Shown piece by piece: positions 424-37,550 of a DNA stretch of 37,550 nt. Source of the stretch: an uncultured Gammaproteobacteria bacterium. Lineage in GTDB: Bacteria; Patescibacteriota; Microgenomatia; Levybacterales; UBA12049. Position 1 is the first letter of the stretch. Every line of letters begins with the position of its first letter. The stretch is taken from positions 1-37,550 of the forward strand of contig CAYYJP010000002.1 in assembly GCA_964472285.1 (NCBI GenBank), in the 5' to 3' direction. Position numbers and translations under genes: made by a program. Below the pieces are notes generated by a model that was not told the origin of the DNA, searched no databases, and saw only the letters and a program-made list of their open reading frames with translations.

Positions 424-1289
424 AAATTTTAGGAACTGGATTAAATGGTTTAATTGGCTCAAGGATTACAGAGCTTCTAGATAATAAGTATGAGTTTGAA
501 AATATAAGTAGATCTACAGGTGTCGATATCGTAAACTACGAATCTGTTTTAAATGCAATTTCTTCTTCAGACTCAAAGATTGTACTTCATACAGCAGCCC
601 ATACCGATGTAAAAGTGGCGGAAAAAGAAAAAGATCTTAGAGAGGAAAGCCAGTGTTGGAAAATAAATGTAGTTGGTACTCAAAACGTTGCAAAAGCTTG
701 TAGTGAAACTGGAAAAAAATTAATTCATGTTTCAACTGACATGGTAATTGGTGGAGATAATATGCCAGAGAACGGATTTGGGGAAGACGCCCAATATAAC
801 CCCCTAAGCTTTTATGCTATTACAAAAGCCCAGGCAGAAAAAGTAGTACAAAACCTTTCAACGCCTTGGTTAATTATGAGAACAGCCTATCCCTATAGAG
901 CTTCATTTGTAAAACCAGATTTTGTAAGATTTTTTAAAGAATGGCTTTTTAGCGGTAAGAAAATTTCAGTATTAGAAGATAGAATTATTTCTCCAACCTT
1001 TATTGATGATTTAGCAAAAGCCCTAGATGCTTTAATTGAAAAAGATGCATCAGGAATTTACAATACAGTTGGTAGTCAAATACTTAGTGTTTACGATGCA
1101 GTAATATTAGTTGCAAAGGCATTCAATCTTGATACTAATTTAGTAAGCAAAACAACAAGAAAACAGTTTTTAGTAGGTCGTCCACCTGAGCCCTTTTCAT
1201 CAGCTTTAAACAATGATAAAATTAGGGAGCTTGGTGTAGAGATGAATACATTAACGCAAGGTTTAGAAATTATTAAAACACAAATATGA
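420..1289 (+). CDS. rfbD: RmlD-type SDR, probable dTDP-4-dehydrorhamnose reductase
   Basis: The GTG start overlaps the rfbB stop. It has an N-terminal Rossmann glycine motif (GTGLNGLIGS), an STD...YAITK (YxxxK) catalytic pattern, about 290 aa, and sits directly after rfbB. Placement within the SDR superfamily is by resemblance only. Confidence 0.6.
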   Translation: MKILGTGLNGLIGSRITELLDNKYEFENISRSTGVDIVNYESVLNAISSSDSKIVLHTAAHTDVKVAEKEKDLREESQCWKINVVGTQNVAKACSETGKKLIHVSTDMVIGGDNMPENGFGEDAQYNPLSFYAITKAQAEKVVQNLSTPWLIMRTAYPYRASFVKPDFVRFFKEWLFSGKKISVLEDRIISPTFIDDLAKALDALIEKDASGIYNTVGSQILSVYDAVILVAKAFNLDTNLVSKTTRKQFLVGRPPEPFSSALNNDKIRELGVEMNTLTQGLEIIKTQI

Positions 1290-2578
1290 CAATAACTTTT
1301 ATTGGACACGGATACGTAGGATTAGTTACTGCAGCAGTTTTTGCAGATTTAGGAAATACAGTTTGGGTTATTGGACATACTGAGGAAAAAATTAAAAATC
1401 TCCAAAAGGGAATAATCCCTATCTATGAACCAGGTCTTGCTGAGGTGGTAAAAAGAAATGTAGCCGCAGGAAGACTGTTGTTTACTCTAGATTATGACAA
1501 AGCAATTCCAGATTCAAAAGTAATATTTATTGCAGTTGGAACTCCACCTAAAGAAAATGGAGAAGCAGATCTTTCTGTTGTTTTCCAAGTAGCACAAAAT
1601 ATTGGAAAACATCTAGATGGTTATAGTGTAGTGGTAACTAAAAGTACGGTTCCTGTAGGAACTAATAAGAAAACAAGAGAGATTATTGAAAAAGTAAAGA
1701 AAGAAAGAGCCGAATTTGATCTTGCATCTGTTCCTGAATTCTTAAGAGAAGGACAAGCAATTTCAGATACCCTACATCCAGATAGAATAGTAATAGGAAC
1801 AGATAGCCAAAAAGCTCAAGATCTTCTTATAGAACTTCATGAGCCAATTGATGGAAACTATGTTTTATCAAATATTGAAACTGCTGAAATGATTAAGTAC
1901 GCTGCTAATGCATTCCTTGCTACAAAAATTTCTTTTTCAAACGCAATTGCTAAGCTTAGTGAATTATCAAATGCAGACGGGTTAAAGGTGTTAGAGGGAA
2001 TTGGTCTTGATAAGAGAATTGGAAATCAGTTTCTTGCTCCTGGGGCAGGTTATGGTGGAAGTTGTTTTCCAAAAGATGTTAAAGCATTAATAGCAATAGC
2101 AAGCTCTTATGGGTATGATTTTTCTCTTCTTAAAGATGTAGATAAGGTAAATAAAGATGCAATAGATGATGTTGTAAAAAAAGCAAAGAAACTTTTAGGA
2201 GAAAAAATAAATGGGGCAACAATTGCAATACTTGGTTTATCTTTTAAGCCAAATACGGATGATATGAGAGATGCTCCTTCAATATCTATTATTAATGATT
2301 TGAAAAAAATGGGTGCAAAAATCAAAGCGTATGATCCAGTTTCAATGGAAAATGCTAAGAGGATTTTTTCAGGAGTTGAACTTTGTGAAGATTCATATTC
2401 AGCTGCAAAAGATGCAGATTTACTAATAGTTGTAACAGAATGGAATGAATTTAAGCAATTGGATTTATCAAAAATAAAAAATGTCATGAAAAATCCAGTA
2501 ATTTTAGATGCAAGAAATATCTACAACCCCTTGGAAGTTAAAAGGTTAGATTTTACCTATCAAGGTGTAGGAAGATAA
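1286..2578 (+). CDS. ugd: UDP-glucose 6-dehydrogenase
   Basis: ATGA start/stop overlap with the upstream gene. It has the GHGYVGL Rossmann motif, the GGSCFPKD catalytic-Cys motif and an LGLSFKPNTDDMRD C-terminal UDP-binding domain, at 430 aa. Confidence 0.9.
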   Translation: MTITFIGHGYVGLVTAAVFADLGNTVWVIGHTEEKIKNLQKGIIPIYEPGLAEVVKRNVAAGRLLFTLDYDKAIPDSKVIFIAVGTPPKENGEADLSVVFQVAQNIGKHLDGYSVVVTKSTVPVGTNKKTREIIEKVKKERAEFDLASVPEFLREGQAISDTLHPDRIVIGTDSQKAQDLLIELHEPIDGNYVLSNIETAEMIKYAANAFLATKISFSNAIAKLSELSNADGLKVLEGIGLDKRIGNQFLAPGAGYGGSCFPKDVKALIAIASSYGYDFSLLKDVDKVNKDAIDDVVKKAKKLLGEKINGATIAILGLSFKPNTDDMRDAPSISIINDLKKMGAKIKAYDPVSMENAKRIFSGVELCEDSYSAAKDADLLIVVTEWNEFKQLDLSKIKNVMKNPVILDARNIYNPLEVKRLDFTYQGVGR

Positions 2579-4541: not shown

Positions 4542-4611
4542 AGATAATCTAGATATAACTTTATCAAAAACTCATACTTTTCACAATAGCAATTTTAAGC
4601 TACAATTAAAT

Positions 4612-5574
4612 ATGGTTAATATGGATACATGTTTGGTTGCCGGAGGCGCTGGATTTATAGGAACACATCTTTGCAAAAGACTTCTTGAAAAAAATTTAAA
4701 AGTCATCTGTGTGGATAATTTTATCAGTAGCTCAAGAGAGAATATTGATAAGTTAAGTAAAAACCCAAATTTTTCGTTTATAGAGCATGATGTAATAAAG
4801 CCATTACCAGAAGATTTAAAGGTAGACTACGTATTTCATCTTGCTTCACCTGCTTCTCCAAATCACCACAGTAAAATTAGTTATCATGCACTTCCTTTAG
4901 AAACAATGCTTGTTAATACAACAGGAACATTTGAACTACTTAAATTTACCCAAAAAAATAATGCTAAGTTTTTGTTTACTTCAACATCTGAAATATATGG
5001 AGATCCTCTGGAGCATCCTCAAAATGAAGAATATAGAGGAAACGTATCAACACTAGGCCCACGCTCTGTATATGATGAGTCAAAAAGATTTGGGGAAACA
5101 ATTACGGCTTATTTTGTAAGAAGTCATGATGTTGACGCAAGGATTGCAAGAATTTTTAATACATACGGTCCTTTGATGATGAAAGAAGATAGAAGAATGA
5201 TAGTTGATTTTATAAATCAGGCAATAGAGGGTAAGCCAATAACTGTTTTTGGTGATGGAAATCAAACTAGATCTCTTTGCTTTGTAGAAGATTTAGTTGA
5301 AGGTTTAATTTTATTAATGTTTCATCCTGATACAAAAGGAGAGGTAGTAAATTTAGGATCTGAAGATGAACACAGTGTTTTAGAATATGCAAATCTTATT
5401 AAAAAATTAACAAATTCAGATTCAGAAATAACTCTTTCTGAAAGCTTACCAGTTGATGATCCGCATAAAAGAAAACCTGATATTGCAAAAGCAAAGAGGT
5501 TATTAGATTGGTCGCCAAAAGTAAATTTGGAAGACGGAGTTTTGCAAACAATAGAATATTTCAAGAGTTTATGA
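4612..5574 (+). CDS. uxs: UDP-glucuronate decarboxylase (UDP-xylose synthase)-like SDR
   Basis: GGAGFIGTHLC, HLASPASP, YDESKR, ARIFNTYGP, R-SLCFVEDLV and DPHKRKPDI-KAK are typical of the UXS/ArnA-decarboxylase family. A TACAAT box at 4601-4606 lies just upstream of the ATG. Confidence 0.8.
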   Translation: MVNMDTCLVAGGAGFIGTHLCKRLLEKNLKVICVDNFISSSRENIDKLSKNPNFSFIEHDVIKPLPEDLKVDYVFHLASPASPNHHSKISYHALPLETMLVNTTGTFELLKFTQKNNAKFLFTSTSEIYGDPLEHPQNEEYRGNVSTLGPRSVYDESKRFGETITAYFVRSHDVDARIARIFNTYGPLMMKEDRRMIVDFINQAIEGKPITVFGDGNQTRSLCFVEDLVEGLILLMFHPDTKGEVVNLGSEDEHSVLEYANLIKKLTNSDSEITLSESLPVDDPHKRKPDIAKAKRLLDWSPKVNLEDGVLQTIEYFKSL

Positions 5575-5590
5575 TTTAATTAAGTATACG

Positions 5591-6715
5591 ATGAATGTAG
5601 TTATAGTTATTCCCACATATAATGAAGAAGGTAATATTGAGCGGTTAATTGATATTCTAGAAAAAGAAGTTTTCCCCACGATTCAAAACCACAAGATGTC
5701 TATTTTGGTTGCTGATGATAGTTCTCCTGATAAAACAGAGAAAATAGTAAGGGAATACATGCAAAAATATGACAATATTGATATTTCTATTGGAAAAAAA
5801 GAGGGTCTTGGCGCAGCCTATCTTAGGGGAATGAATGTAGCAGTTGAAAAAATGAACGCAGAGATCATGTTTGAAATGGATGCGGATTTATTCCATGACC
5901 CATTTAAAATTCCAGAATTTTTAAAAAAGGTTGAGCAGGGTTTTGATTTTGTAGTGGGTACGAGATATAGTCAGGGGGGCTCAATTCCAAAAGACTGGGG
6001 AATGCACAGAAAAATAATGTCTGTATACGGAAACATGTTTATCCGTTTACTATTTGGTAGAAAAGAAATTCATGATTGGACTGGCGGATATAGAGCAGTA
6101 AAAAAAGAAGTTTTCCTAAGAGAAAAGTCTAAGCTCGATAAGTTTACTGGATATACATTTCAGGTTGGATTTTTATATAACGCAGTTATGGATGGCTATA
6201 AAGTTGCAGAAGTTCCATTTGCTGCAAAAGATAGAACTAAAGGAAAGTCAAAAATACCAGGTATTGAAACAATCATAAAAACTCTTGTTTTTGTTATTAC
6301 TGTAAGACTTGTTCACGGTTCATTTGGCAAGTTTTTAATTGTAGGGGGTATTGGTTTTTTCTTACAACTTATTGTTTATAGACTATTAATTAATTCTACT
6401 CTTCCTCTTGGAGTATCCAATCAATTGTCGGCTCAGCTTGCAATTTTTTCAAACTATAATTTAAACAATCTCTGGACTTTTAAGAAAGAAAAATCAGGAA
6501 ATTCCTCATCTTATCTTAAAAAAATGGCAGCTTTTTTTGTAACTTCAAATACAGGAGTATTTTTCATTCAGTCTGGTCTTATTCAGCTTGGAGAAATATT
6601 GTTTGGCAGAGAATTCCCGTTGCCATATGTCTATTTTGTTTTAGCAACAGGAGTACTGCTTATTTATAATTTTACAATGTATAGATTTGTAATCTGGCGC
6701 AAAAAACCTCATTAA
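5591..6715 (+). CDS. GT2 polyprenol-phosphate glycosyltransferase (DPM1/GtrB/ArnC-like) fused to a C-terminal GtrA-like 4-TM domain
   Basis: N-terminus is VVIVIPTYNEEGNI...DDSSPD...MDADL (GT2 DxD). The C-terminal ~130 aa (FGKFLIVGGIGFFLQLIVY...NNLWTF...) is GtrA-family-like. Confidence 0.8.
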   Translation: MNVVIVIPTYNEEGNIERLIDILEKEVFPTIQNHKMSILVADDSSPDKTEKIVREYMQKYDNIDISIGKKEGLGAAYLRGMNVAVEKMNAEIMFEMDADLFHDPFKIPEFLKKVEQGFDFVVGTRYSQGGSIPKDWGMHRKIMSVYGNMFIRLLFGRKEIHDWTGGYRAVKKEVFLREKSKLDKFTGYTFQVGFLYNAVMDGYKVAEVPFAAKDRTKGKSKIPGIETIIKTLVFVITVRLVHGSFGKFLIVGGIGFFLQLIVYRLLINSTLPLGVSNQLSAQLAIFSNYNLNNLWTFKKEKSGNSSSYLKKMAAFFVTSNTGVFFIQSGLIQLGEILFGREFPLPYVYFVLATGVLLIYNFTMYRFVIWRKKPH

Positions 6716-8304
6716 TGAATAGACTTAAATCATTTTTCAAATCTTTAAAAACTTTAGACGGTCTTAGTCTAATTGGTATTCTATTGCTTGCTGCTTTTTT
6801 TAGGTTATATAAAATTGCTGATTACATGACTTTTTTAGGAGATGAAGGAAGAGATGTTTTAAAAGTTTATGAAATTTTACACGGGCAATTTACACTTTTA
6901 GGTCCAACATCATCAGTAGGAGGTTTTTTTCTTGGTTCCATATACTACTATCTTATGGCCCCTTTTTTATTCTTGTTTAACTACGATCCAGTTGGTCCTG
7001 CAGTTATGGTAGCGCTTTTTGGAATTGCTACGGTTTTTTTACTTTATAAAGTATCAGATAGGTTTTTTGGAAAAAGAGTTGCACTATTTGCAAGCTTAAT
7101 CTATGCAATTTCTCCCTTGATAGTTTCTTATTCAAGATCTTCTTGGAATCCAAATCCTCTTCCTTTTTTCTCGCTTCTTACTCTCGTTATAGTCTTAGAA
7201 GCTCTTAGAAAAAACAATCTTAAACTCTTTTTTGCATCAGGAATATTATTTGGAATTTCAATGCAACTGCATTACTTAGCACTTTTCTTAGGAGTAGTAA
7301 TATTTTTCTACATTTTATTCACAACTCTATTTAAATCATTTAATAAAGAAACAATTATTAATTTAGTAAAAAGGTATCTCACGTTTTTCGTAGGATTTTT
7401 AATTGGTTGGTCTCCATTTCTTGTCTTTGAGTTAAGGCATAATTTCTTAAATTTTAGAAACATTTTTGAATTCGTTTTACATTCAGGGAATACAGGAACC
7501 AATGAAAGTTTTCTTAAAGTAATTGGAGATGTGTTTTTCAGATTATTCGGAAGGGGAATGTTTGCCTATCCTGCTCCAGAACAACTTAATTGGTTTAGTC
7601 CTTTGATAATAAATACTTGGACAATCTTAATATTAGTAGTGGCAGTTTTGTCTACAGTATTACTTATTTTTAATTTTTATAAATCATTAAAAGAAAAAGA
7701 CACAAAATTTTATATTTATTCACTTCTAATTTTCTGGCTTTTTGTTTCAATTTTACTTTTTGGATTTTATAAAAAACAAATTTATGATTATTACTTTGCT
7801 TTCATGTTTCCCCTTCCATTTATTTTGGTTTCCTTACTGTTTAATTTTATTTGGGAGAATAAAAAATATTTAAAAAACTTTTCCAAATGGGTCGCATTAA
7901 TAATTTTCGTAGTTATCTTTCTAATTAATTTACAAGGGTTTCCTTTTAGATATCCTCCAAATAGACAGTTAAATCAAATGAGAACAATAGCTGATTTTAT
8001 AATGACAAAAACAAATGCAAAACCTTTCAATTTTGCCATAATTACGGGAGGAAATAGCGACCATGCTTATAGATATTTCTTTACTGTTTGGAATAATCCT
8101 TCTGTAACAATTCAATATGAGGGGGTTGATCCGGAAAGAGAATCTGTTACAGATCAGCTTTTTGTTGTTTGTGAAAGTATTCCATGCGAGCCAGTTGGTA
8201 ATTCACTCTGGGAAATAGCAGGTTTTGGAAGAGCAGAGATTGAAGACAGTTGGGATGTATCTGTATCTAAGGTGTATAAGTTAGTACACTATGAAGAAAA
8301 ATAA
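6715..8304 (+). CDS. GT-C fold glycosyltransferase (ArnT/PMT, GT39/GT83-like), polytopic membrane protein
   Basis: ATGA-type overlap with the upstream GT2 gene. It has more than 10 predicted hydrophobic helices, an acidic GDEGRD motif in the first loop as in ArnT/PMT enzymes, and a C-terminal soluble domain. Confidence 0.7.
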   Translation: MNRLKSFFKSLKTLDGLSLIGILLLAAFFRLYKIADYMTFLGDEGRDVLKVYEILHGQFTLLGPTSSVGGFFLGSIYYYLMAPFLFLFNYDPVGPAVMVALFGIATVFLLYKVSDRFFGKRVALFASLIYAISPLIVSYSRSSWNPNPLPFFSLLTLVIVLEALRKNNLKLFFASGILFGISMQLHYLALFLGVVIFFYILFTTLFKSFNKETIINLVKRYLTFFVGFLIGWSPFLVFELRHNFLNFRNIFEFVLHSGNTGTNESFLKVIGDVFFRLFGRGMFAYPAPEQLNWFSPLIINTWTILILVVAVLSTVLLIFNFYKSLKEKDTKFYIYSLLIFWLFVSILLFGFYKKQIYDYYFAFMFPLPFILVSLLFNFIWENKKYLKNFSKWVALIIFVVIFLINLQGFPFRYPPNRQLNQMRTIADFIMTKTNAKPFNFAIITGGNSDHAYRYFFTVWNNPSVTIQYEGVDPERESVTDQLFVVCESIPCEPVGNSLWEIAGFGRAEIEDSWDVSVSKVYKLVHYEEK

Positions 8305-25447: not shown

Positions 25448-25518
25448 TGCCGAGTCGTCTAATGGTAGGACTGCAGATTCTGGATCTGCCTATTGGGGTT
25501 CGAATCCCTGCTCGGCAG
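25448..25518 (+). tRNA. tRNA-Gln (anticodon CUG)
   Basis: Hand-folded cloverleaf. Acceptor stem TGCCGAG/CTCGGCA, D arm GTCT-AATGGTA-GGAC, anticodon arm GCAGA-TTCTGGA-TCTGC (U33, CTG, G37), T loop TTCGAAT, discriminator G. The 3' CCA is not encoded (the following bases are CAC). Confidence 0.9.
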
Positions 25519-25615
25519 CACTTTTTCAATATCAGCCTCTTTTGCTACTTTTTGGTGCAATGGCTTTTTAGGCGTTTATAGTATATTTTAAGGGTTGGGA
25601 GTATAATAATTAATA

Positions 25616-28605: not shown

Positions 28606-29283
28606 ATGGCTATTGAAATATCTCGTTATTTACCAACATCTACCACTCTTGATCGTTTTGATGGAAGCAGGTGGAGAATGTTTGACCTTAATGGTGGCAA
28701 TCTTGTTTTAACTCAAAATGGACAAGAATTAGTCTCTAAAAGACCAAGTGTATTAACTGATTTAAAAGGTTACAGGCACGAACTACTTAATCCTGGTATG
28801 CCAGCTTCTATGCGTAGACCATTTAGACATGGAGGAAATAGCGATGTTTATGAAGTTGGAGATACAGATCTTGTCATAAAAGAAGCAGGAAATGAGCAGT
28901 CTGTTTGGTTTTCACTTGAAAGGCTAGATTATTTATATGGTATTTGTGAAGAATCTCTCCCTCCATTTATTAGGGTACCTGAGCATTATGGTGCTTTGTT
29001 TTCAGCAAAACTAGATAGGCAATTTTTATTAATGCAAAAAGTTAATAATGGTTTTACTATTCAGGATTTATTAGATGATAATTCAAATCCTCAAAGAGCA
29101 GGTATGGTAAAGGGTGCTTTTGATAGAGCAAAATCCTTACTTGACCAAGCAATAAAGAGGCATGAGTTAGAAGATGGTTATCCACATAGATTACTTACAG
29201 ATTGGCACGAAGGAAACGTAATAGTTGATTTTGAGAAGCCAACCAATGAATATCCATTTACATTATATGTAATTGATCAATAG
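28606..29283 (+). CDS. Protein-kinase-like (APH/ChoK-type) fold protein ending just after the putative metal-binding Asp
   Basis: A glycine-rich HGGNSDVYEV segment, VIKE (beta3 Lys), an LLMQKV hinge, a TDWHEGNVIV (D-x-H-x-x-N) catalytic loop, and a terminal YVIDQ*. There is a ~70-aa unassigned N-terminal extension and no C-lobe after the ID motif. Confidence 0.5.
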   Translation: MAIEISRYLPTSTTLDRFDGSRWRMFDLNGGNLVLTQNGQELVSKRPSVLTDLKGYRHELLNPGMPASMRRPFRHGGNSDVYEVGDTDLVIKEAGNEQSVWFSLERLDYLYGICEESLPPFIRVPEHYGALFSAKLDRQFLLMQKVNNGFTIQDLLDDNSNPQRAGMVKGAFDRAKSLLDQAIKRHELEDGYPHRLLTDWHEGNVIVDFEKPTNEYPFTLYVIDQ

Positions 29284-29333
29284 TTTATTTGTTTTTTTTG
29301 ATAAGTAAACTATAATGAAAACTGTAAACTAAT

Positions 29334-29978
29334 ATGAATAAAGATATTTCTAACAAGATAGATAAGTTTTTTTCCCAGTTTTACGCAGTTAATTTTGAAA
29401 AAGGAGATATTATTCTTCGACCTGACGGAAAAATACAAAATATATTTTTACTTAAAAAAGGAAAAGTAAGAATGTATTCAATTTCCAACGATGGTCAGGA
29501 AATTACCCTTCATATATTCAGACCAGATTCATATTTCCCAATAATGCTTTCTTTAAGTGATGTTTTTGATAAATATTATTTTGAAGCTTTAGAAAAGGTA
29601 GAGGTAGTAAAAGCCCCAGCCCAAAAAGTAATAGAATTTGTTAAAAGTGATCAAGATATATTATTTGATTTAACTACACGTTTTTCCTATGCAATTTCCG
29701 GTCTTACATCAAGAATTGAAACAATGGCTTTTGAAGATGCATATAATAGAATAGCAAATCTTTTACTTTATCTTTCTCAAAAATTTGGAGAAGCAAGTAA
29801 AGATAAGGTCACAATTACTATTCCTCTGCAGCATGAAGATATAGCTAACTGGGTAGGTATTAGAAGAGAAACCGTAAGCAGGCAGTTTGATAAATTGCAC
29901 AAGGATGGAATTATAGAAAGTAAGAATAAGAAGTTGGTAATAAATCTAGATAAACTAAAAGATACACTTAAAAGTTAA
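29334..29978 (+). CDS. Crp/Fnr-family transcriptional regulator
   Basis: An N-terminal cNMP-binding beta-roll (..GDIILRPDG..IFLLKKGKVRMY..) and a C-terminal HTH (HEDIANWVGIRRETVSRQFDKLHKDGII). A TATAAT box lies at 29311-29316. Confidence 0.85.
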   Translation: MNKDISNKIDKFFSQFYAVNFEKGDIILRPDGKIQNIFLLKKGKVRMYSISNDGQEITLHIFRPDSYFPIMLSLSDVFDKYYFEALEKVEVVKAPAQKVIEFVKSDQDILFDLTTRFSYAISGLTSRIETMAFEDAYNRIANLLLYLSQKFGEASKDKVTITIPLQHEDIANWVGIRRETVSRQFDKLHKDGIIESKNKKLVINLDKLKDTLKS

Positions 29979-29985
29979 TTAAGGA

Positions 29986-30273
29986 TTATTTTTTCTTTTT
30001 CTCTTGGAAATACTTTTTAGTCATTAAAGCATATCCTCCTAAAATTACACCAAAACCAATAATAACGCCTGATTGAATAAAGTCATATTTTAGCTGTGCA
30101 CCTACAGTTACGTAATATGGTTTAGGATCTGCTTTTTGAACATATTTTCCATCTATGGTCAAATTAGTTAGCGTAATAAATGTACTAAATATAAAATAAA
30201 GTGCCCAGAGAATAATCCAAGAAGCTAAAATATAAAAAGGGTACTCATTTAATTTTTTAGGTAAACGTATCAT
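29986..30273 (-). CDS. Hypothetical 95-aa two-TM membrane protein
   Basis: Start taken at ATG 30273, one nt after the upstream gene's TAA, which implies tight coupling. It has two hydrophobic helices and a Lys-rich tail. Confidence 0.5.
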   Translation of the reverse strand: MIRLPKKLNEYPFYILASWIILWALYFIFSTFITLTNLTIDGKYVQKADPKPYYVTVGAQLKYDFIQSGVIIGFGVILGGYALMTKKYFQEKKKK

Positions 30274-30274
30274 T

Positions 30275-30538
30275 TTATTTAGGCAGTGATTCACACACCT
30301 TTCCATCCTTATCTTTATCTAAGTTAAATTTATCAACTTTTGCTCCACCATTTTTTATAAAAAAATCCTGCGCATCTTCTTGTGTAAGAAAATTTTTACA
30401 TGTAACACTAGCAGTTGGGTTAACAGAAGGGTATTTTCTTAATTTTATATATTCTGGGCCAATAGAGTAATTTAGCCAAATAAGAAATGAGAATATAAAG
30501 AAAGTAATAATACTCCAAAAATAACTATTTCTTGTCAT
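30275..30538 (-). CDS. Excalibur calcium-binding domain protein with an N-terminal TM anchor
   Basis: C-terminus CKNFLTQEDAQDFFIKNGGAKVDKFNLDKDKDGKVCESL carries the Excalibur DxDxDGxxCE motif. Confidence 0.65.
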   Translation of the reverse strand: MTRNSYFWSIITFFIFSFLIWLNYSIGPEYIKLRKYPSVNPTASVTCKNFLTQEDAQDFFIKNGGAKVDKFNLDKDKDGKVCESLPK

Positions 30539-30587
30539 TAGTATTATTAAATACCCTTTTAAGCTTTATGTCTAGAAGAATAAATAA

Positions 30588-30860
30588 TTATCTTTGGGGG
30601 ATTATCTTATCGAAATCATTAGGAGGAATATAGTATTCTTGGAAAGATAAATCGACATACCAATCCCATAATGCTTTTCTATTATCAATACTTGGTTTTG
30701 GAACATCAGCTCTATCTATCTCTACTAATACTGGGAATGCAGCTTTTGCAAGTCTTGTAGATAAGTCGTTATCAAGTTTTCTCTCTGGTCTTCTTCCAGT
30801 TTCCAATCTTTCATAAAACCCAGGAATTATTTGTACCACTTCTTCTGCAAACTTTGACAT
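30588..30860 (-). CDS. Hypothetical 90-aa protein (possibly the 3' part of a frameshifted larger gene)
   Basis: ORF only. Its reading frame stays open about 80 nt upstream of the ATG without a start codon. Confidence 0.4.
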   Translation of the reverse strand: MSKFAEEVVQIIPGFYERLETGRRPERKLDNDLSTRLAKAAFPVLVEIDRADVPKPSIDNRKALWDWYVDLSFQEYYIPPNDFDKIIPQR

Positions 30861-31138
30861 ATCATTAAGTAGGCTAATAACAGCCGCATCTTTTATTAAA
30901 CTTTTAATATCTATACCAGTATTGCTGCAATCATTAAAAGTCTTAGATAAGCTTTTTGAGCGTCTTTGCCAACCGTAAGAGTTTGTCCTTCAAGCATAGC
31001 AGTTATAGTTGTGTCCACATTGGTTTGAAGAGTATCAATAAATTTACCCAATAAGGATTTGCAAGAAGAATAAAGGGCAATTGTGTACTTTAAGCAGGTA
31101 GGTTGAGAATGGTTTAGTCTTAATCCAATAACTAGAAG

Positions 31139-31390
31139 TTATGGCATACAGGTTTTTATTTCTTGTAGAGAAAAACCCAGTCTTTTTATTTGACCTAAAT
31201 ATCTTCCCCTTGTGTGCTTATCATAATCTTTTCTTTCAAGTATAACGGTTATAAAAGGTCTAAGGTTGGGGTCTGATGTTGAATGTGGACTTTTATATTT
31301 TAAATGGCTTGAGCCAGTAGAAAGTTGCTTAGCAAAACCTAAACAAAGAAGACAGGCGATAAGTTCTTTATATCCAAATGATAGGCTCAT
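31139..31390 (-). CDS. hicA: HicA-like mRNA interferase toxin
   Basis: YKELIACLLCLGFAKQLSTGSSHLKYKSP...ITVILERKDYDKHTRGRYLGQIKRLGFSLQEI follows the HicA/YcfA pattern (GS-H plus a C-terminal basic helix). A 4-nt overlap links it to the upstream gene. Confidence 0.6.
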   Translation of the reverse strand: MSLSFGYKELIACLLCLGFAKQLSTGSSHLKYKSPHSTSDPNLRPFITVILERKDYDKHTRGRYLGQIKRLGFSLQEIKTCMP

Positions 31391-31740
31391 CTACTAATTG
31401 ATTGATGAAAAACATCAGACGAATAAGAAGCACTTACATTAATTTTCTCATCTATATCAGAACTATTGTCAGATAGGTTAATTAATCTTTTTTGTTCAGA
31501 TAAAGGTGGTACAAAACGAATTTCGTCTTGGAGTTCTTTGGGAATATCAAAATATGTACATATTAGGTCATTTACCTGAAAGTAAAGATGATTCAAGTTA
31601 TCTGCTTCAGTAAAAACATCATACTCAGGTAATTCTGCCAATAAAACACCAGAATTACTTTTAACAACAGAAACTTTAATTTTTTGAGGAAGACTCAATA
31701 AATCACTCTTATTCATGGAAACCGCCTTTCGTTGTTTCAT
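31387..31740 (-). CDS. HicB-like antitoxin candidate (N-terminal HicB/UPF0150 fold, no recognisable DNA-binding domain)
   Basis: VLLAELPEYDVFTEADNLNHLYFQVNDLICTYF resembles the HicB partial RNase H-like fold. It is translationally coupled to hicA. The start could instead be the internal ATG at 31716. Confidence 0.45.
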   Translation of the reverse strand: MKQRKAVSMNKSDLLSLPQKIKVSVVKSNSGVLLAELPEYDVFTEADNLNHLYFQVNDLICTYFDIPKELQDEIRFVPPLSEQKRLINLSDNSSDIDEKINVSASYSSDVFHQSISR

Positions 31741-31775
31741 TATGCTCTTTTAAAAATTATATGTCAAACTGGGTA

Positions 31776-31804
31776 TTGACAGCAGGTACTTAAAGCTGTA
31801 CAAT
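31776..31804 (+). promoter_or_regulatory. Consensus promoter TTGACA-17-TACAAT for the transposase
   Basis: TTGACA at 31776-31781, a 17-nt spacer, then TACAAT at 31799-31804. The ATG is 6 nt downstream, which looks leaderless. Confidence 0.6.
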
Positions 31805-31810
31805 ACTAGT

Positions 31811-32689
31811 ATGAACAAAAAGTTTACATTTAAAGATTTCCTCAAAAGGTATCCTAATGACGAAGCTTGTCTGAAAGAGATATACAACAATCGTTTCCCA
31901 GAGGGCGTTAATTGCGTTAAGTGCAAGAGACTAAGAAAATATTATCCTCTAAAAGGCAGGACTACTTTTTCTTGCGGGTTTTGTGGTACACAGATAAGTC
32001 CTCTAACGGATACAATCTTTGAAAAGTCTGCTGTTTCTTTAAGACTTTGGTTTTATGCAATGTTTCTTATGATTAAGACAAGAAGCGGTATATCAGCTAA
32101 ACAACTTGAAAGGGAGTTAGGCGTTTCGTATAAGACAGCTCATAGAATGTTTAAAATGATAAGACTACTTATGCAGGAACAGCCAACCTTGCTTGAGGGA
32201 AATGTTGAAGTTGACGAGACTTTTGTAGGCGGAAAAGGAAGAAATAGAGCAACAAAACCTCATTTCAATGAAATACCAAAAGAGGTAGTCTGGGGTGCGG
32301 TTCAAAGAGGCGGTAAAGTTTATGCAAAACATGTTGCTAATACTGGCAAATGGACGCTTTTAGAACAGATACAGCAAAACGTAGATAAAAATGCAACTAT
32401 TATGACTGATAACTGGAGAGGATACGACCAACTATCTAAATATGGATATAATCATTTTGCAGTCAATCACGGGGTATCTGAGTACGTTAGAGGCGAGATA
32501 CACACAAATACTATAGAAGGTGTATGGTCTCAGCTAAAGAGAGGAATTACAGGCGTTTATAGACATGTATCAAAAGAATACTTACAGGATTACGTAAATG
32601 AGTTTACCTTCAGATATAACTACAGGCACCTAGAAAATGGAATGTTTGACCTGTTATTTAGTCGTGTTTCGGTTGTGAAGCCCGTTTAA
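31811..32689 (+). CDS. IS1595-family (ISXO2-like) transposase
   Basis: An N-terminal transposase zinc ribbon (FPEGVNCVKCKR...FSCGFCGTQ), then a DDE-type core (VEVDETFVGGK, IMTDNWRGY, HTNTIEGVWSQLKRG). Confidence 0.85.
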   Translation: MNKKFTFKDFLKRYPNDEACLKEIYNNRFPEGVNCVKCKRLRKYYPLKGRTTFSCGFCGTQISPLTDTIFEKSAVSLRLWFYAMFLMIKTRSGISAKQLERELGVSYKTAHRMFKMIRLLMQEQPTLLEGNVEVDETFVGGKGRNRATKPHFNEIPKEVVWGAVQRGGKVYAKHVANTGKWTLLEQIQQNVDKNATIMTDNWRGYDQLSKYGYNHFAVNHGVSEYVRGEIHTNTIEGVWSQLKRGITGVYRHVSKEYLQDYVNEFTFRYNYRHLENGMFDLLFSRVSVVKPV

Positions 32690-32837
32690 GAAGCTCTAAG
32701 AAGTCTTGTTTGCCCACGTGAATATTTTGCTTAATCCGCTTTTGTATTTCTTTTCGTTTGATGTTAAATGGTGTTTTTTTCACAAAATAATTATACCATA
32801 AGTTGAAAACTTGACTTTTAACTTTCAGGATGTTAAA

Positions 32838-32868
32838 CTTGCAATCAAAGCTATTGCAAGTTTTTTTT
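32838..32868 (+). terminator. Intrinsic terminator
   Basis: CTTGCAAT (32838-32845), a 7-nt loop, ATTGCAAG (32853-32860), then a T8 run (32861-32868). Confidence 0.75.
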
Positions 32869-32872
32869 ATTG

Positions 32873-32881
32873 TGCTATAAT
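32873..32881 (+). promoter_or_regulatory. Extended -10 promoter TGcTATAAT
   Basis: TG at 32873-32874 and TATAAT at 32876-32881. The ATG at 32891 is 9 nt downstream with no SD. Confidence 0.5.
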
Positions 32882-32890
32882 AAGTTTACT

Positions 32891-33370
32891 ATGGCAGACT
32901 TTCAAAAAGCAATAAATGAATCAAAAACTTTGCTAGCATCTTTTGGTGTTGATTCTCCCCCAATTCCTTTAACAGATATTGTCGCTTCTAATGGATTAAA
33001 TATTGTATATGCTGATTTCTCAGTCATTCCAGATGGAAATAAAATTGCTGGATTTATAGATTTTAGTAAAAGCAGGATTGTTGTTAATAAAGATGATTCC
33101 CCGAATAGACAACGATTTACTATTGCTCACGAATTAGGACATTATATAATGCATCAAGATTATGTAAAAGATGAAAGTAAATATAATGTTTTACTTAGAG
33201 TTCCCCTAAGGGATAAAGGTTATACTTCAGAAGAACAAGAAGCTAATTGTTTTGCTGCCAATCTTCTTGTTCCTAAAGAATTATTAGAAAAATATAAAAA
33301 TATTCCCAATACGATTAAGGCTTCAATTTTTGCTGTTTCTGAAGATGTAATAAAATACCGCAAAATATAA
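32891..33370 (+). CDS. ImmA/IrrE-family (M78, COG2856) zinc metallopeptidase
   Basis: An HEXXH motif (TIAHELGHYIMH) followed by EEQEANCFAANLLVP, the diagnostic ImmA/IrrE pair. The start is taken at ATG 32891 rather than the TTG at 32870. Confidence 0.8.
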   Translation: MADFQKAINESKTLLASFGVDSPPIPLTDIVASNGLNIVYADFSVIPDGNKIAGFIDFSKSRIVVNKDDSPNRQRFTIAHELGHYIMHQDYVKDESKYNVLLRVPLRDKGYTSEEQEANCFAANLLVPKELLEKYKNIPNTIKASIFAVSEDVIKYRKI

Positions 33371-33380
33371 CCTCAAAAAT

Positions 33381-33806
33381 ATGACTACTGAAACATCACG
33401 TTCAACCTCTATATCCACAAGCCAACCAATACCTTTTAAGGATATTAAATCACAAGCAGAAGGAATTAATCCTTCAACAGAACTAGAATCAGCAGAGATA
33501 AATCAATCTTCGGCAGCCGAATATCAAGCACAAAAACTAGCATTAGAATTATACTCGCAGGAACAATTTTTGGATTTACAAAGATCTTGGGGAAAAGAAA
33601 TAAAACTACAAATATGGGTAGTAATTTTATTTCAAATAGGGTTTGTTCTTCTTGTAGGCTTCAATGTTAACGGATTTACAACAAACCTAAGCACTCTTCC
33701 ATATATGTATGTTTTAGTAATACTTCAAACATTAGCCAACATTGTTGCTTTAGGTTATGTAATAGTAAGATTTCTATTTCCCAGTTTTAATTCACCAAAG
33801 AAGTAA
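33381..33806 (+). CDS. Hypothetical 141-aa protein with a Ser/Thr/Gln-rich N-terminus and two C-terminal TM helices
   Basis: It begins 10 nt after the immA stop. The segments IWVVILFQIGFVLLVGF and YMYVLVILQTLANIVALGYVIV are hydrophobic helices. Confidence 0.55.
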   Translation: MTTETSRSTSISTSQPIPFKDIKSQAEGINPSTELESAEINQSSAAEYQAQKLALELYSQEQFLDLQRSWGKEIKLQIWVVILFQIGFVLLVGFNVNGFTTNLSTLPYMYVLVILQTLANIVALGYVIVRFLFPSFNSPKK

Positions 33807-34420: not shown

Positions 34421-35284
34421 ATGGGAAGGAAATTATTTGTAGTATTTATACTACTTTTTTGTTTTTTATTGGGATCTAGGCCTTTGGATGAAGGTTATGC
34501 CATTAGTTGTAAAAACTCAAGACCTTTAACTGCTCCTATACTTTTATCAGCACAAGCAAAAGATAGAAGTGTTGTTTTGGTATGGCAGGAGGCAGCAGAT
34601 CCGGTAACTCATTATTTAGTTGCTTATTCAAGAAATGAAACAGACCTTGAATATGGAAATCCAAACGTTGGGTCAAAGGGTACAACTACATATACAGTTA
34701 CAGAACTAACAAATGGAGTAAAGTATTACTTTAAAGTACGTGGTGAGAATGGTTGTAAGCCTGGAAAATTTTCTAATAAGCTTTCAGCAATAGCAGGATA
34801 TCCAAATGGATTTACAGTTTCAAGACAACCTAATTTATCAATTTATAGAACTGTTGAGGGAGCAAGTGAATCAGCAAACGTAGAGGAAGTTGAAGATGAA
34901 AAAGCACCACCACCTGCACCATTAACAACGGTTGAAGGGCAATCATTAAGTTGCACAACTTGTATAGGGTTACAAATGCTTGGAATAGAATTATTGCTTT
35001 TAATTAGCTTTTTCTATTTTGCTAAAAGGTATTTAGTTTTAAAAAGAATTTATTCTTTACTAATACCAATTACATTATATTTAGTTTTTTACAAGATTAA
35101 TGGGGTATGTCCTAATGATAATTTTTGGTGTCAATATTTTCCTCAACTAAATGTAATTTTATTTATGGCTTTTATAATCATTTATAAAAATAAATATTTA
35201 AATTTAAATTTTAAATTTATGGAAAATTTATTAAAAAATAAAAATGTTAAAAAAACAGTAAATAAAAAAAGGAAGAAAAAGTAA
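34421..35284 (+). CDS. Secreted fibronectin type III domain protein with a C-terminal 3-TM anchor
   Basis: Signal peptide MGRKLFVVFILLFCFLLGS, an FN3 pattern (SVVLVWQEA..YLVAY.....YTVTELTNGVKYYFKVRGEN), an acidic/Pro linker, three hydrophobic helices and a Lys-rich tail. The start is taken at ATG 34421 rather than the TTG at 34385. Confidence 0.7.
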   Translation: MGRKLFVVFILLFCFLLGSRPLDEGYAISCKNSRPLTAPILLSAQAKDRSVVLVWQEAADPVTHYLVAYSRNETDLEYGNPNVGSKGTTTYTVTELTNGVKYYFKVRGENGCKPGKFSNKLSAIAGYPNGFTVSRQPNLSIYRTVEGASESANVEEVEDEKAPPPAPLTTVEGQSLSCTTCIGLQMLGIELLLLISFFYFAKRYLVLKRIYSLLIPITLYLVFYKINGVCPNDNFWCQYFPQLNVILFMAFIIIYKNKYLNLNFKFMENLLKNKNVKKTVNKKRKKK

Positions 35285-35286
35285 TT

Positions 35287-37550
35287 ATGGAATCATTTAT
35301 TTCTAACATTCAATTATTTTTAGCAGATATACCATTTTACTCACAACAGTATTTAGATAGGTATTCATATCTAGTACCGCTTGGAGTAATAGGTATTTGG
35401 AGATGGTCTGTTTGGATGATGAAAGAAATCATTGGTCTTCATTATCATCCTAAGACAGGTGCATATAAAGCAAGCGTGTCTATTATTACGCCTGTTTATA
35501 ATGAGAATCCAATAATATTCACTCAAGCTTTGGAATCTTGGGAGAAAAATAAACCTGCAGAAATAATTGCCGTTATTGATTACACAGATAAGGTTTGTAT
35601 TAATATTTTTGAAAAATTTAAGAAAACTTTCCCTGGCGCAGTATTAATTATTACCAAAATCCCTGGGAAAAGACAGGCATTAGTTGATGGAATAAAAGTA
35701 GCAAAAAGTGAAATCGTTGCATTGGTTGATAGTGATACTATTTGGGCAAATGATACTTTAGAAAATGGACTTCCTCCCTTTAATGATAAGAAAATGGCAG
35801 GAGTTGCTACATATCAAAGTGTTTTAAATCCTAAGACTTTTGCACAAAAAATCTTTGATATACAGCTTGATTTAAGATACAAACATGAATACCCATTCTT
35901 AGCTGCTTGTGGTAATGCTCTTGTTTGTCTATCAGGAAGAACAGCGTTCTATAAAAGAGATGTAGTAACACCTATGCTTGATGATCTTGTTAATGAAAAG
36001 TTTTTAGGAAGACCAGTTATTTCTGGAGATGATAAAAGATTAACATACTTAGTTTTAGCAGCAGGATATAAAGTTGCATATCAAAGTAATTCTCATGTCT
36101 ACACACCAGGAATGGAAAGTCTAAGAGCATATCTTAAGCAAAGGTTAAGATGGACAAGGAATGGATTAAGAGCAGATCTTGGAGCAATACTTAGTGGTTG
36201 GCCATTAAGACATCCAGCACTACTATTTTTCCAAGTAGATAAATTTTTACAATCATTTGTAGTTATACTTAGCCCAATTTATTTCTTTGTTTCATTGTAT
36301 CTTCAACTCTGGGTTGCAGCAGCAGTAATTTTCTGCTGGTGGTTTGTTAGTAGGACTATCAAAATTCATCCATATTTATCAAAAAATCCTAAAAATATCT
36401 ATATAGTTCCTGGATATGTTTTATATTCTTTCTTTACTGGTTTAGTTAAAATATATTCTTTCTTTACTCTTAATACGCAAGGTTGGATAACAAGGTGGGA
36501 TAAATCAAGACTTCCACATATTAAATTTATTAACGCGCTCCCTCCTTATATTGCAACTCTTGGAGTAGTATTATTTTTAGCTTATGGAGTTTATTTATAT
36601 AAACAACATACATATTTAATTCCTCAAATACAAAGACAGCAATTATTGTCACAAGCTTTGCCTTCTGATACAAAAACAATTGCAAGCGCAGCAGTATTGG
36701 GTACTTACTCTGTGCAGAAAGATCTTTTAGCAAAACGCTATGAAGTTTTGGGAAATGAAAGCTTAGATCAAATTGCAGATAAATTTAGCGTTAATAGTGA
36801 ACAACTCTATTTTGCAAATATGGCTAAAGCACCAAATAGAGTTATTGAAAAAGGACAAGTAATATCCATTCCAGGAAAAGATATAACATTAGCAGGTGAA
36901 CAAAGTCTTGTAAGACCAGTTAGAGACGCAAGTGTTATTAGTGTTTCTTATGACAGTAAGACAAATACTCTTTTAGTAACTGGAAGAGGAAAGGTTATTA
37001 CTCTTAAAGACATTTTAAATAGAGGTGGAAAAAATTATATTTCCGAGATAGCTCCATATACATGGCTTTCAAAAGCAACTATTTTCCTTGCAGATGGATT
37101 AACACTTAAGTTAGATAAAAACGAAGTAAAGTGGCTTAAGCTTGAGAGCAATAAAGATGGTTTTGCAATGCTTAGAGGAAGAAATAGCGACATTATTATA
37201 AATGGGGTAAAAATTACATCTTGGGATAGTACAAAAAATGATTATGATACAAATCTAAACGATGGTAGAAGTTTTATCATGGTTAAAGACAATTCAAGGA
37301 TGGATTTATATGATTCTGAAATTTCTTATCTTGGATATCCAACATCATCAGATATAACAGTTTCTCCATATGGAATATCATGGAAATTATCAAGCTTAAA
37401 GTTGAAGAAAAATCTTTTAACAGGAGAAGTTATTAACAGTAAATTCCATCATAACTATTTTGGAGCATTTACATATGGTGCAACAGGAATGGTTTGGAGA
37501 GGCAATGAATTCTATAGCAATATTAGATATGGTCTAGATCCTCATGATGA
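35287..37550 (+). CDS. Processive GT2 polysaccharide synthase (HAS/NodC-like) fused to LysM and a right-handed beta-helix (AlgG/AlgE-type); 3' end outside the window
   Basis: Absent from the ORF track. My translation from ATG 35287 stays open for 754 codons to the window end. It has PVYNE (35491-35505), DSD (35728-35736), GDDKRLT (36025-36045), QRLRW (36139-36153) and several TM helices. It also has LysM (YEVLGNESLDQIADKFSVNSEQLYFANMAKAPNRVIEKGQVISIPG, 36739-36876) and a beta-helix-like C-terminal region ending in YGLDPHD (37528-37548). Confidence 0.85.
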   Translation, partial: MESFISNIQLFLADIPFYSQQYLDRYSYLVPLGVIGIWRWSVWMMKEIIGLHYHPKTGAYKASVSIITPVYNENPIIFTQALESWEKNKPAEIIAVIDYTDKVCINIFEKFKKTFPGAVLIITKIPGKRQALVDGIKVAKSEIVALVDSDTIWANDTLENGLPPFNDKKMAGVATYQSVLNPKTFAQKIFDIQLDLRYKHEYPFLAACGNALVCLSGRTAFYKRDVVTPMLDDLVNEKFLGRPVISGDDKRLTYLVLAAGYKVAYQSNSHVYTPGMESLRAYLKQRLRWTRNGLRADLGAILSGWPLRHPALLFFQVDKFLQSFVVILSPIYFFVSLYLQLWVAAAVIFCWWFVSRTIKIHPYLSKNPKNIYIVPGYVLYSFFTGLVKIYSFFTLNTQGWITRWDKSRLPHIKFINALPPYIATLGVVLFLAYGVYLYKQHTYLIPQIQRQQLLSQALPSDTKTIASAAVLGTYSVQKDLLAKRYEVLGNESLDQIADKFSVNSEQLYFANMAKAPNRVIEKGQVISIPGKDITLAGEQSLVRPVRDASVISVSYDSKTNTLLVTGRGKVITLKDILNRGGKNYISEIAPYTWLSKATIFLADGLTLKLDKNEVKWLKLESNKDGFAMLRGRNSDIIINGVKITSWDSTKNDYDTNLNDGRSFIMVKDNSRMDLYDSEISYLGYPTSSDITVSPYGISWKLSSLKLKKNLLTGEVINSKFHHNYFGAFTYGATGMVWRGNEFYSNIRYGLDPHD

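Follow-up and report, generated by a model that had tools for sequence, protein, structure and literature searches.

The stretch of DNA considered here (the window) comprises the 37,550 nucleotides of contig CAYYJP010000002.1 (assembly GCA_964472285.1), and its 3' end carries a plus-strand gene predicted to encode a polysaccharide synthase and a polysaccharide-modifying domain in a single chain (here called the synthase-modifier gene). Translation in frame +1 from the ATG at 35287 ran for 754 codons without a stop, to 37548, the last full codon of the window. Since stop codons are frequent in DNA of ∼32% G+C, chance cannot account for so long an open frame. An earlier note on this DNA had reported such an uninterrupted frame, missing from the supplied list of open reading frames (ORFs), and that observation held: the list leaves out any ORF running off an end of the source DNA, which explains why the gene is absent from it. 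An antisense ORF of 67 aa is present at 36530-36733. The window end cuts the gene inside its catalytic YGLDPHD motif, and the parts that are visible are as follows.

35287..37550, plus strand: synthase-modifier gene, 5' 78% (residues 1 to 754 of an expected ∼967); from the open frame and full-length relatives (960 to 975 aa) that share the architecture
35287..35439, plus strand: N-terminal helical hairpin, residues 1 to 51, corresponding to the membrane helices at the N terminus of hyaluronan synthase (HAS); from model helices 2-25 and 27-51 and hydropathy
35476..36162, plus strand: cytosolic GT-A catalytic domain of glycosyltransferase family 2 (GT2), residues 64 to 292; from PF13641, the NodC model, HAS structures, and motifs
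36121..36465, plus strand: QxxRW interface helix, transmembrane helices 310-338 and 342-359, and interface-type helix 368-393; from the model, the HAS order, and the XlHAS1 alignment
36466..36522, plus strand: gating loop, residues 394 to 412, with invariant W400, T402, R403, W404, and R408; from alignments and conservation
36523..36657, plus strand: single long transmembrane helix, residues 413 to 457, predicted to lead the chain to the outside; from model helix 413-457 and a hydropathy peak at 412-440
36733..36873, plus strand: LysM-like module, residues 483 to 529, beta-alpha-alpha-beta; from Pfam, the family profile, and the model
36940..37548, plus strand: first half of an AlgG-like right-handed beta-helix, residues 552 to 754; from the AlgG model, AlgG crystal structures (E = 7e-15), and the Foldseek match to 4nk6
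37528..37548, plus strand: catalytic motif Y748-G-L-D751-P-H753-D754, preceded by R747; from invariance and the AlgG alignment

A search of 5.8 billion proteins returned 1,223 matches to the window protein. About 110 of the best 120 matches were full length (940 to 1,035 aa) and agreed in Pfam content (GT2 families, in many cases LysM, Beta_helix, and NosD). The closest relative, P0001, has 967 aa, is 86% identical, and aligns with residues 1 to 754 of the window protein without indels; it served as the stand-in for the full-length protein in comparisons with hidden Markov models (HMMs) and in AlphaFold modeling, and the conservation figures given below refer to an alignment of 68 family members. 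With full-length relatives of ∼967 aa, the description of the ORF as "giant" was an overstatement. The AlphaFold model of P0001, built from the 68-sequence alignment, had a mean predicted local distance difference test (pLDDT) score of 89.3 and a predicted template-modeling (pTM) score of 0.73. Its best Foldseek matches were AlgG and two hyaluronan synthases, those of Chlorella virus and Xenopus, with a TM-score (target) of ∼0.6 for HAS. An fn3 protein identical to the one encoded just upstream in the window was found only on four contigs of ≤2.5 kb from groundwater metagenomes (PRJNA268031, ANAN16-1), which offered no route to the true C terminus.

The N-terminal 440 residues make up a membrane-bound processive GT2 of the class I hyaluronan synthase, NodC, and chitin synthase type. 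Pfam Glyco_tranf_2_3 (PF13641) matched residues 64 to 292 of the window protein (E = 1.5e-27), and the solved hyaluronan synthases XlHAS1 and CvHAS were matched at E = 4e-17 and E = 8e-16, respectively; the family profile reached HAS among PDB sequences at E = 2e-23. Bacillus HasA was 26% identical over residues 1 to 403. The best NCBIfam match of the GT2 half was the NodC model (E = 1e-28), but its 100 bits against a curated cut-off of 550 bits ruled out the GT2 half as a NodC ortholog. A Chitin_synth_2 match was seen in relatives. The motifs named in the earlier note were all found (PVYNE at 69-73, DSD at 148-150, GDDKRLT at 247-253, and QRLRW at 285-289) and are invariant or nearly so in the 68 members; the invariant residues are D98, DSDT (148-151), GDDK (247-250), Q285-x-x-R288-W289, and W400-I-T402-R403-W404. 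The motif list of HAS is DxD(T), GDD(R), and QxxRW (PMC11750622), and the Lys of GDDK is invariant where GDD(R) has Arg.

Hyaluronan synthases have a pair of N-terminal transmembrane helices, four C-terminal ones, and three interface helices, with both termini in the cytosol (PMC11750622). The order interface helix 2, transmembrane helices 3 and 4, and interface helix 3 (PMC11750622) was the basis for mapping the model helices, and the QxxRW helix lies at 279-303 in the AlphaFold model of P0001. At the N terminus, hydropathy gave a single clear hydrophobic segment (27-45). In HAS, the gating loop sits in the cytosol, connects interface helix 3 to transmembrane helix 5, and is needed for synthesis (PMC11750622). 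Its counterpart here aligned with WGTSGRK/R of XlHAS1 and WGTR of CvHAS, with Ile replacing Gly and D405 at the position of XlHAS1 R496; the pLDDT fell below 50 at residues 400 to 405, as would be expected of a mobile loop. The HAS membrane architecture was not matched in full: three transmembrane helices follow the GT domain, and transmembrane helix 6 has no counterpart. Because one transmembrane helix follows the gating loop, where HAS has two, everything downstream of residue 457 should be outside the cell. Unfused beta-helix orthologs start with signal-peptide-like sequences, and unfused Chloroflexi synthases end just past the counterpart of helix 413-457. Homology to the HAS topology, together with the signal peptides of the unfused orthologs, thus supports the predicted extracellular position of the LysM module and the beta-helix, as the earlier note had proposed it.

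The LysM assignment is marginal on the window sequence alone (E = 1e-3; 19.4 bits, just under the 20.9-bit cut-off) and is supported at the family level. PF01476 is precomputed for many relatives, with P0241 scoring 35 bits, and the family profile matched the LysM proteins Ecp6, LytE, and YaaH among PDB sequences at residues 480 to 530. The model elements at this position (strand 483-486, helices 493-500 and 504-511, and strand 525-528) form a beta-alpha-alpha-beta unit, and the junction made up of the transmembrane helix and the LysM region is conserved and confidently folded in the AlphaFold model. LysM modules bind polymers of N-acetylglucosamine (GlcNAc), and Ecp6 binds chitin.

The C-terminal region is a beta-helix of the AlgG type. 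Its strands span residues 552 to 963 of the P0001 model (∼410 residues). Pfam Beta_helix scored below its cut-off on the window protein (E = 1.2e-3), and the AlgG model (NF038177) matched window residues 570 to 754 at E = 1.7e-19 (69.9 bits) and P0001 at E = 4e-39 (134.6 bits), there aligning residues 570 to 868 with model positions 122 to 419 of 519. AlgG crystal structures were matched at E = 9e-24 by sequence and at E = 7e-45 by the family profile, and Foldseek paired the model with AlgG (4nk6) at E = 1.5e-19 and a TM-score (target) of 0.71. The AlgE4 and AlgE6 modules matched more weakly (E = 5e-10 to 1e-7). The sequence N-I-R-Y-G-L-D-P-H-D occupies window residues 745 to 754, and Y748 through D754 aligned exactly with Y314-G-I-D317-P-H319-D320 of AlgG. 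Y748, G749, D751, H753, and D754 are present in 68/68 members, P752 in 66/68, and N745 is invariant. The earlier identification of YG-DPHD as an AlgG-type catalytic motif is borne out by this invariance of the AlgG Tyr, Asp, and His, which are kept also in the Chloroflexi and archaeal homologs. The invariant motifs of both halves show active sites kept intact by selection.

AlgG uses the His of DPHD to abstract H5 and Tyr314 to position the proton donor, and the carboxylate is neutralized by an Arg (PMC4444821). The neutralizing Arg, which we take to be Arg345 in the Pseudomonas syringae enzyme, aligned with K778, followed by R779, each conserved in at least 98% of the 68 members. The segments SKFHHNYFG (718-726) and HGIMLHE (796-802) form a family signature that is invariant here and absent from AlgG. 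Because of this signature, and because the score of 135 bits is far below the curated 700-bit cut-off of NF038177, the beta-helix is a distinct subfamily, and the candidate assignment as an AlgG ortholog was ruled out.

The residue that precedes the catalytic Tyr bears on the type of reaction. It is Arg (R747) in 59/68 members and Lys in 4; elsewhere, the same position is Val in AlgG, Tyr, Ser, or Arg in the Chloroflexi homologs, and Glu in archaea. In AlgE7, the corresponding R148 is invariant among lyase-active AlgE enzymes; pure epimerases have Gly there, and the R148G substitution eliminates cleavage (PMC8824271). A single site of the AlgG/AlgE type can carry out both epimerization and cleavage, with the Tyr taking part in proton donation (PMC4444821, PMC8824271). 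By analogy, the Arg before the Tyr is a lead to, not proof of, a lyase or dual activity in the Patescibacteria enzymes.

Profile HMMs (run on the window protein and on P0001), the family profile against PDB, and AlphaFold/Foldseek agree on the synthase-LysM-beta-helix order reported in the earlier note, and we regard the architecture, a HAS/NodC-like GT2 followed by a single transmembrane helix, a LysM module, and an AlgG-like beta-helix, as practically certain. The frame carries no frameshift, the C-terminal region is an AlgG-type beta-helix with its catalytic residues in place, and no well-annotated family of this kind was found.

A short sugar dehydrogenase gene accompanies the synthase. 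Surveying one genome per GTDB species gave 43 loci, in which stop-to-stop ORFs were called and compared with domain-specific queries. A short dehydrogenase of ∼300 aa lay ≤1.5 kb from the synthase in 20/20 fused loci having at least 1.3 kb on both sides; it was mostly ≤125 bp from the synthase or overlapping it, upstream or downstream. It was also present in 6/6 loci where the parts are split. In L001, the locus of P0001, this gene is P0121 (13028-13939), and the same gene stands beside the synthase in loci from L002 through L041. The short dehydrogenase of the window organism would lie beyond the window end. The best 120 relatives of the dehydrogenase are 248 to 349 aa long and contain PF03721 (NAD binding) and PF00984 (central domain) only, never PF03720, the nucleotide-sugar-binding domain of the C terminus; the chain stops ∼25 residues past the central domain, and no separate gene for the missing PF03720-like domain was found in any of the 43 loci. 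Conservation is at least 97% in the Rossmann motif and for the catalytic residues E141, K195, N199, C254 (in GSCLPKD), and D258, and the model is a compact two-domain fold (pLDDT 87.9, pTM 0.82). The best sequence match was AlgD, GDP-mannose 6-dehydrogenase, with 148 bits versus 124 for the best UDP-glucose dehydrogenase (UGDH). Structurally, Pseudomonas aeruginosa AlgD was also the best match (TM-score on the query, 0.87; root mean square deviation, 3.9; 33% identity), with UGDHs at ≤0.72. The NCBIfam names returned were of UDP-glucose dehydrogenase types (AglM and TuaD), all below their cut-offs. No description of this short family was found in literature on truncated sugar dehydrogenases.

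The distribution of the parts links the two halves of the chain. In Patescibacteria, they are fused in all 30 loci where both halves are visible, in Levy-, Ames-, Woese-, Curtiss-, Davies-, Roizman-, and Moranbacteria and in metagenome-assembled genomes (MAGs) titled "Gammaproteobacteria" or "Saccharibacteria." In four Chloroflexi loci, a secreted beta-helix protein of 530 to 590 aa, a dehydrogenase, and a GT2 of 420 to 430 aa are separate genes of one cluster, and in two Woesearchaeota loci the dehydrogenase, the beta-helix, and the GT2 are likewise separate, with a second beta-helix in one. The split forms order their genes differently from the domains of the fused protein, so the association of GT2 and beta-helix has been retained independently of the fusion. 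Such a pattern is a classical indication that both halves work in the same pathway. The earlier note had considered the fusion unusual, but Patescibacteria normally carry it, and databases contain hundreds of members.

HMMER, run exhaustively over 1.84 billion representatives with window residues 441 to 754 as the query, gave 772 matches at E ≤ 1e-3 and 64 at E ≤ 1e-30, a mix of fused, standalone (including P0241, with LysM and a beta-helix), and tandem beta-helix proteins. Annotated plasmid and phage collections yielded no fused form; they contained GT2-only matches (HasA, rhizobial records presumed to be NodC, and other GT2 enzymes) and one phage beta-helix. Database names of members are generic ("glycosyltransferase family 2," "right-handed parallel beta-helix repeat-containing protein," "hyaluronan synthase," and "hypothetical protein"), and a search of the literature on HAS, AlgG, alginate, or epimerases in the candidate phyla radiation (CPR), Patescibacteria, Microgenomates, and DPANN gave no description of the family. 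A synthase-dependent polysaccharide system in which the modifier is fused to the synthase is real, widespread, and uncharacterized.

Several further observations concern the members and their relatives. The MAGs of L002, L003, L009, L011, L013, L014, L016, L017, L019, and L031 are titled "uncultured Gammaproteobacteria bacterium" (TPA-assembled); on MAGs with such a Patescibacteria-type gene, these titles look like mislabels and not taxonomic spread. Some genomes have two paralogs, sometimes in tandem around the dehydrogenase (L008 and L012), and contigs often break inside or beside the gene (the window end, L003, L007, L017, L024, L028, L029, and L034). Repeat-induced assembly breaks would be a likely cause of the window ending in the most conserved motif. 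In a Levybacteria MAG, the gene at L010 7974-10896 (P0098) is split by a frameshift near residue 224 and is either a pseudogene or a sequencing error. Matches of 1,240 to 1,370 aa in which the matched region was shifted to ∼640-890 had raised the candidate of a dehydrogenase-GT2-beta-helix triple fusion, which was ruled out: these proteins are tandem double beta-helices with Big_6 domains, as in P0243, P0245, P0257, P0273, and P0275 (1,240 to 1,330 aa). Among other architectures of related beta-helices, P0242 (1,285 aa) has two beta-helices fused to a PMT_2 glycosyltransferase, and P0076 (1,308 aa) has a DUF1565 region in the same chain as the synthase-modifier domains. An unannotated ORF of Pseudomonas phage Y5 (OQ572407.1, 70506-71441; H17) is 30% identical to beta-helix residues 568 to 880; it is perhaps a tail depolymerase that is directed at alginate and belongs near this subfamily.

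With slightly better than even confidence, we propose that the protein is a single-chain synthase and modifier that makes and exports an acidic, uronate-containing polysaccharide and then, outside the cell, subjects it to C5 epimerization and/or beta-eliminative cleavage. The GT2 half would polymerize nucleotide sugars in the cytoplasm and thread the chain through its own channel, and the chain would emerge beside the LysM module and the beta-helix, held directly above the exit. There, H753, the His of DPHD, would abstract H5 of uronate residues; reprotonation from the other face would give C5 epimerization, or, alternatively, the 4-O-glycosidic bond would be eliminated, a lyase cut that might serve length control or release. 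The uronate would be supplied by the dedicated AlgD-like dehydrogenase encoded by the adjoining gene. Because R747 resembles the lyase determinant R148 of AlgE7, a dual or lyase-leaning activity would be as likely as pure epimerization. The LysM module could either tether the enzyme to the wall or hold the product. The synthase and the LysM module point to UDP-GlcNAc-type chemistry, and the dehydrogenase and the beta-helix point to alginate enzymes; the polymer may be of the glucuronic acid/GlcNAc type, of the polymannuronate type, or an N-acetylated uronate.

A number of points weigh against this proposal. The GT2 half is closest to enzymes that use UDP-GlcNAc (HAS and NodC) and the dehydrogenase to a GDP-mannose dehydrogenase, which are different sugars, and the substrate of the dehydrogenase is uncertain because the nucleotide-binding domain is missing from it. 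The AlgG neutralizing Arg is replaced by Lys in Patescibacteria and archaea and by Glu or Asp in Chloroflexi, where the last Asp of DPHD is also replaced, by Thr. Given the low equivalog score of the beta-helix (135 bits versus the 700 bits of AlgG) and its own signature, its substrate and reaction may differ from those of AlgG. The topology is placed by homology and by the signal peptides of orthologs, the window gene is the first 78% only, with its downstream neighbors beyond the window end, and the case for the family's function is made from comparisons of sequences, profiles, and predicted models.

Other explanations were weighed with the same evidence. The beta-helix could be purely a lyase or depolymerase that trims or releases the nascent chain or opens the cell's own capsule, comparable to AlgL or AlgE7, with no epimerase activity. 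R747 (or Lys) before the catalytic Tyr, at the position of the R148 that is invariant in lyase-active AlgE, agrees with such a role, as does the fact that other synthase-dependent polysaccharide systems also have a dedicated cleaving enzyme. We nonetheless find this explanation doubtful: it extrapolates from AlgE7 to a protein only ∼15 to 20% identical, the Chloroflexi and archaeal homologs have Tyr, Ser, Arg, or Glu before the Tyr, the closest relative, AlgG, is an epimerase, and the separate membrane-anchored protein p423 (described below) could be the cleaving enzyme. A neutral product, chitin-like or a chito-oligosaccharide as made by NodC, would be bound by the LysM module, with the beta-helix acting as a noncatalytic guide or wall binder or acting on a polysaccharide of foreign (host) origin. 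In its favor, NodC is the best-matching NCBIfam model of the GT2 half, LysM binds GlcNAc polymers and the family profile matches the LysM effector Ecp6, and CPR bacteria live attached to hosts. This explanation appears very improbable to us in view of the invariant residues of uronate chemistry, the sugar 6-dehydrogenase that adjoins in 20/20 loci and in the split versions, and the NodC score of 100 bits against 550.

An alginate-like system would polymerize beta-1,4-linked mannuronate from GDP-mannuronate, provided by the AlgD-like dehydrogenase, and its fused AlgG-like domain would turn mannuronate (M) to guluronate (G); if true, a minimal pathway to alginate would exist beyond Pseudomonas, Azotobacter, and brown algae. 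Both the dehydrogenase, by sequence and structure, and the beta-helix, at every level, have their best matches in the alginate pathway (AlgD and AlgG). Even so, we consider such a system unlikely: the GT2 half resembles HAS and NodC, AlgD leads the archaeal UGDH by a small margin and NCBIfam names the dehydrogenase as UDP-glucose types (AglM and TuaD), the nucleotide-binding domain that would set GDP versus UDP specificity is missing, no counterparts of Alg44, AlgK, AlgX, and AlgE were seen in the loci, and the LysM module suggests a GlcNAc-containing ligand. A bolder version of our proposal is a self-contained, two- or three-gene polyuronate factory of ultrasmall bacteria and archaea, in which one polypeptide polymerizes, exports, and C5-epimerizes an alginate-like M/G chain or an iduronate-containing, glycosaminoglycan-like chain and in which the dehydrogenase is of a new kind that docks onto the synthase or has a substrate other than a nucleotide sugar; taken as a whole, this too seems to us improbable. 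It would be the first system for uronate epimerization at the polymer level outside alginate producers and animals and would offer a compact enzyme for tailored polyuronates. The least probable explanation, with practically negligible likelihood, is a chimeric assembly or a missed frameshift that joins two genes. The frameshift in L010 and the contig end inside the gene could be cited in its favor, but the continuous architecture occurs in ∼110 independent clusters at 90% identity from NCBI, JGI, ENA, and Logan assemblies, the same fusion is present in 30 genome loci, and the junction (transmembrane helix and LysM) is conserved and confidently folded. The clusters and loci together refute an artifact.

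The surroundings of the gene, and the other sugar-related genes of the window, were compared with those of the surveyed loci. Two features of the window are relevant.

34421..35284, plus strand: fn3 membrane protein with a signal peptide, an extracellular fn3 domain, and C-terminal transmembrane helices; from fn3 (E = 2.7e-10) and sequence
1286..2578, plus strand: full-length, three-domain UDP-glucose 6-dehydrogenase ("ugd"); from PF03721, PF00984, and PF03720

The stop of the fn3 gene is 2 nt before the ATG at 35287, and the two genes are probably cotranscribed. An fn3 protein occupies the same position in L001 and 11 further close loci and is confined to the closest relatives. Synteny between the window and L001 runs through Peptidase_S11, a 374-aa ORF, and the glutamyl-tRNA synthetase gene and, further on, through fn3 and the synthase. 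Between the glutamyl-tRNA synthetase gene and fn3 (28606-33806), the window has extra genes, among them a Crp-type regulator at 29334-29978, an IS1595-family transposase at 31811-32689, and an M78 peptidase at 32870-33370, and L001 has different genes there; this segment looks locally rearranged or inserted. Downstream of the synthase, L001 encodes the 303-aa dehydrogenase, the 423-aa p423, and a sortase. p423 (L001 13995-15266) is a membrane-anchored, weak beta-helix protein (DUF1565/Beta_helix) without the DPHD motif that follows the module in 14 loci, and it could be the cleaving or binding enzyme of the module. Among the neighbors scanned, no alginate-operon genes (alg8, alg44, algK, algX, and the rest) were found, and fn3, the short dehydrogenase, p423, and the sortase were present instead.

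The earlier note had also linked ugd to precursor supply. The gene is indeed present in the window, but the link failed: it encodes a normal three-domain enzyme (532 bits with the TuaD-type model, below the 700-bit cut-off; 32% identical to the short dehydrogenase of the module), lies 33 kb away in a different glycosylation cluster, and was ruled out as a dedicated supply. That cluster (420-8304) comprises an RmlD-like reductase, the full-length Ugd, three genes of the dehydratase/epimerase family, a GT2-GtrA polyprenol-phosphate glycosyltransferase, and a PMT_2 (ArnT-like) protein, and resembles a surface glycosylation pathway based on a lipid carrier. A tRNA-Gln (CTG) at 25448-25519 was the sole RNA gene detected in the window.

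Attachment to other microbes is the way of life of Patescibacteria (CPR) and DPANN cells, and to our knowledge almost nothing is known of their surface polymers. The synthase-modifier family is widespread in genomes of the Microgenomates type, and since its active sites stay intact in very small genomes, the polymer probably matters to these organisms. One chain would combine polymerization, export, and postpolymerization uronate chemistry, and it might become a single-gene tool for epimerized or size-controlled acidic polysaccharides. The always-present, shortened dehydrogenase is a separate enzymological puzzle.

The family shares traits with four known systems. With NodC and chitin synthases it has in common the best NCBIfam model, a W-G/I-T-R loop, and the Chitin_synth_2 match in relatives, whereas NodC lacks both an extracellular catalytic domain and a linked dehydrogenase. 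AlgE7, the secreted bifunctional epimerase/lyase of Azotobacter vinelandii, has a beta-helix with Y-G-x-D-P-H-(D/E), and its R148-Y149 corresponds to R747-Y748 here; AlgE enzymes differ in being Ca dependent, in carrying R-modules, and in being secreted free, and the sequence relationship is distant. Further lyase determinants of AlgE7 are E117, Y122, and K172. The class I hyaluronan synthases (CvHAS, Xenopus HAS1, and HasA) are likewise membrane-bound processive GT2 enzymes with DxDT, GDD(R/K), QxxRW, and a W-x-T-R loop, and they show the same order of interface helix 2, two transmembrane helices, interface helix 3, gating loop, and transmembrane helix. In hyaluronan operons (hasA-hasB), the synthase and dehydrogenase genes are adjacent, and here, too, a sugar 6-dehydrogenase gene adjoins the synthase gene. 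In contrast to HAS, the present proteins lack transmembrane helix 6 and have their C terminus outside, as predicted, with ∼520 extra residues (LysM and beta-helix), GDDK in place of GDDR, and WITRW in place of WGTSGRK, and the dehydrogenase is the short, two-domain form.

Like the alginate system of Pseudomonas and Azotobacter, the family unites a GT2 polymerase, an extracytoplasmic AlgG-type beta-helix with YG-DPHD, and an AlgD-like dehydrogenase. In Pseudomonas, polymerization and modification are reported to be physically linked in a multiprotein complex (PMC4436075). Because alginate producers use such an envelope complex for this coupling, the fused protein would be a simple model for it. 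In the alginate system, Alg8/Alg44, AlgG, and AlgD are separate proteins of a large operon that also encodes AlgK, AlgX, AlgE, AlgL, and AlgI/J/F; here, where accessory proteins were not seen in the scanned loci, the polymerase and the modifier form one chain, and the synthase is HAS-like.

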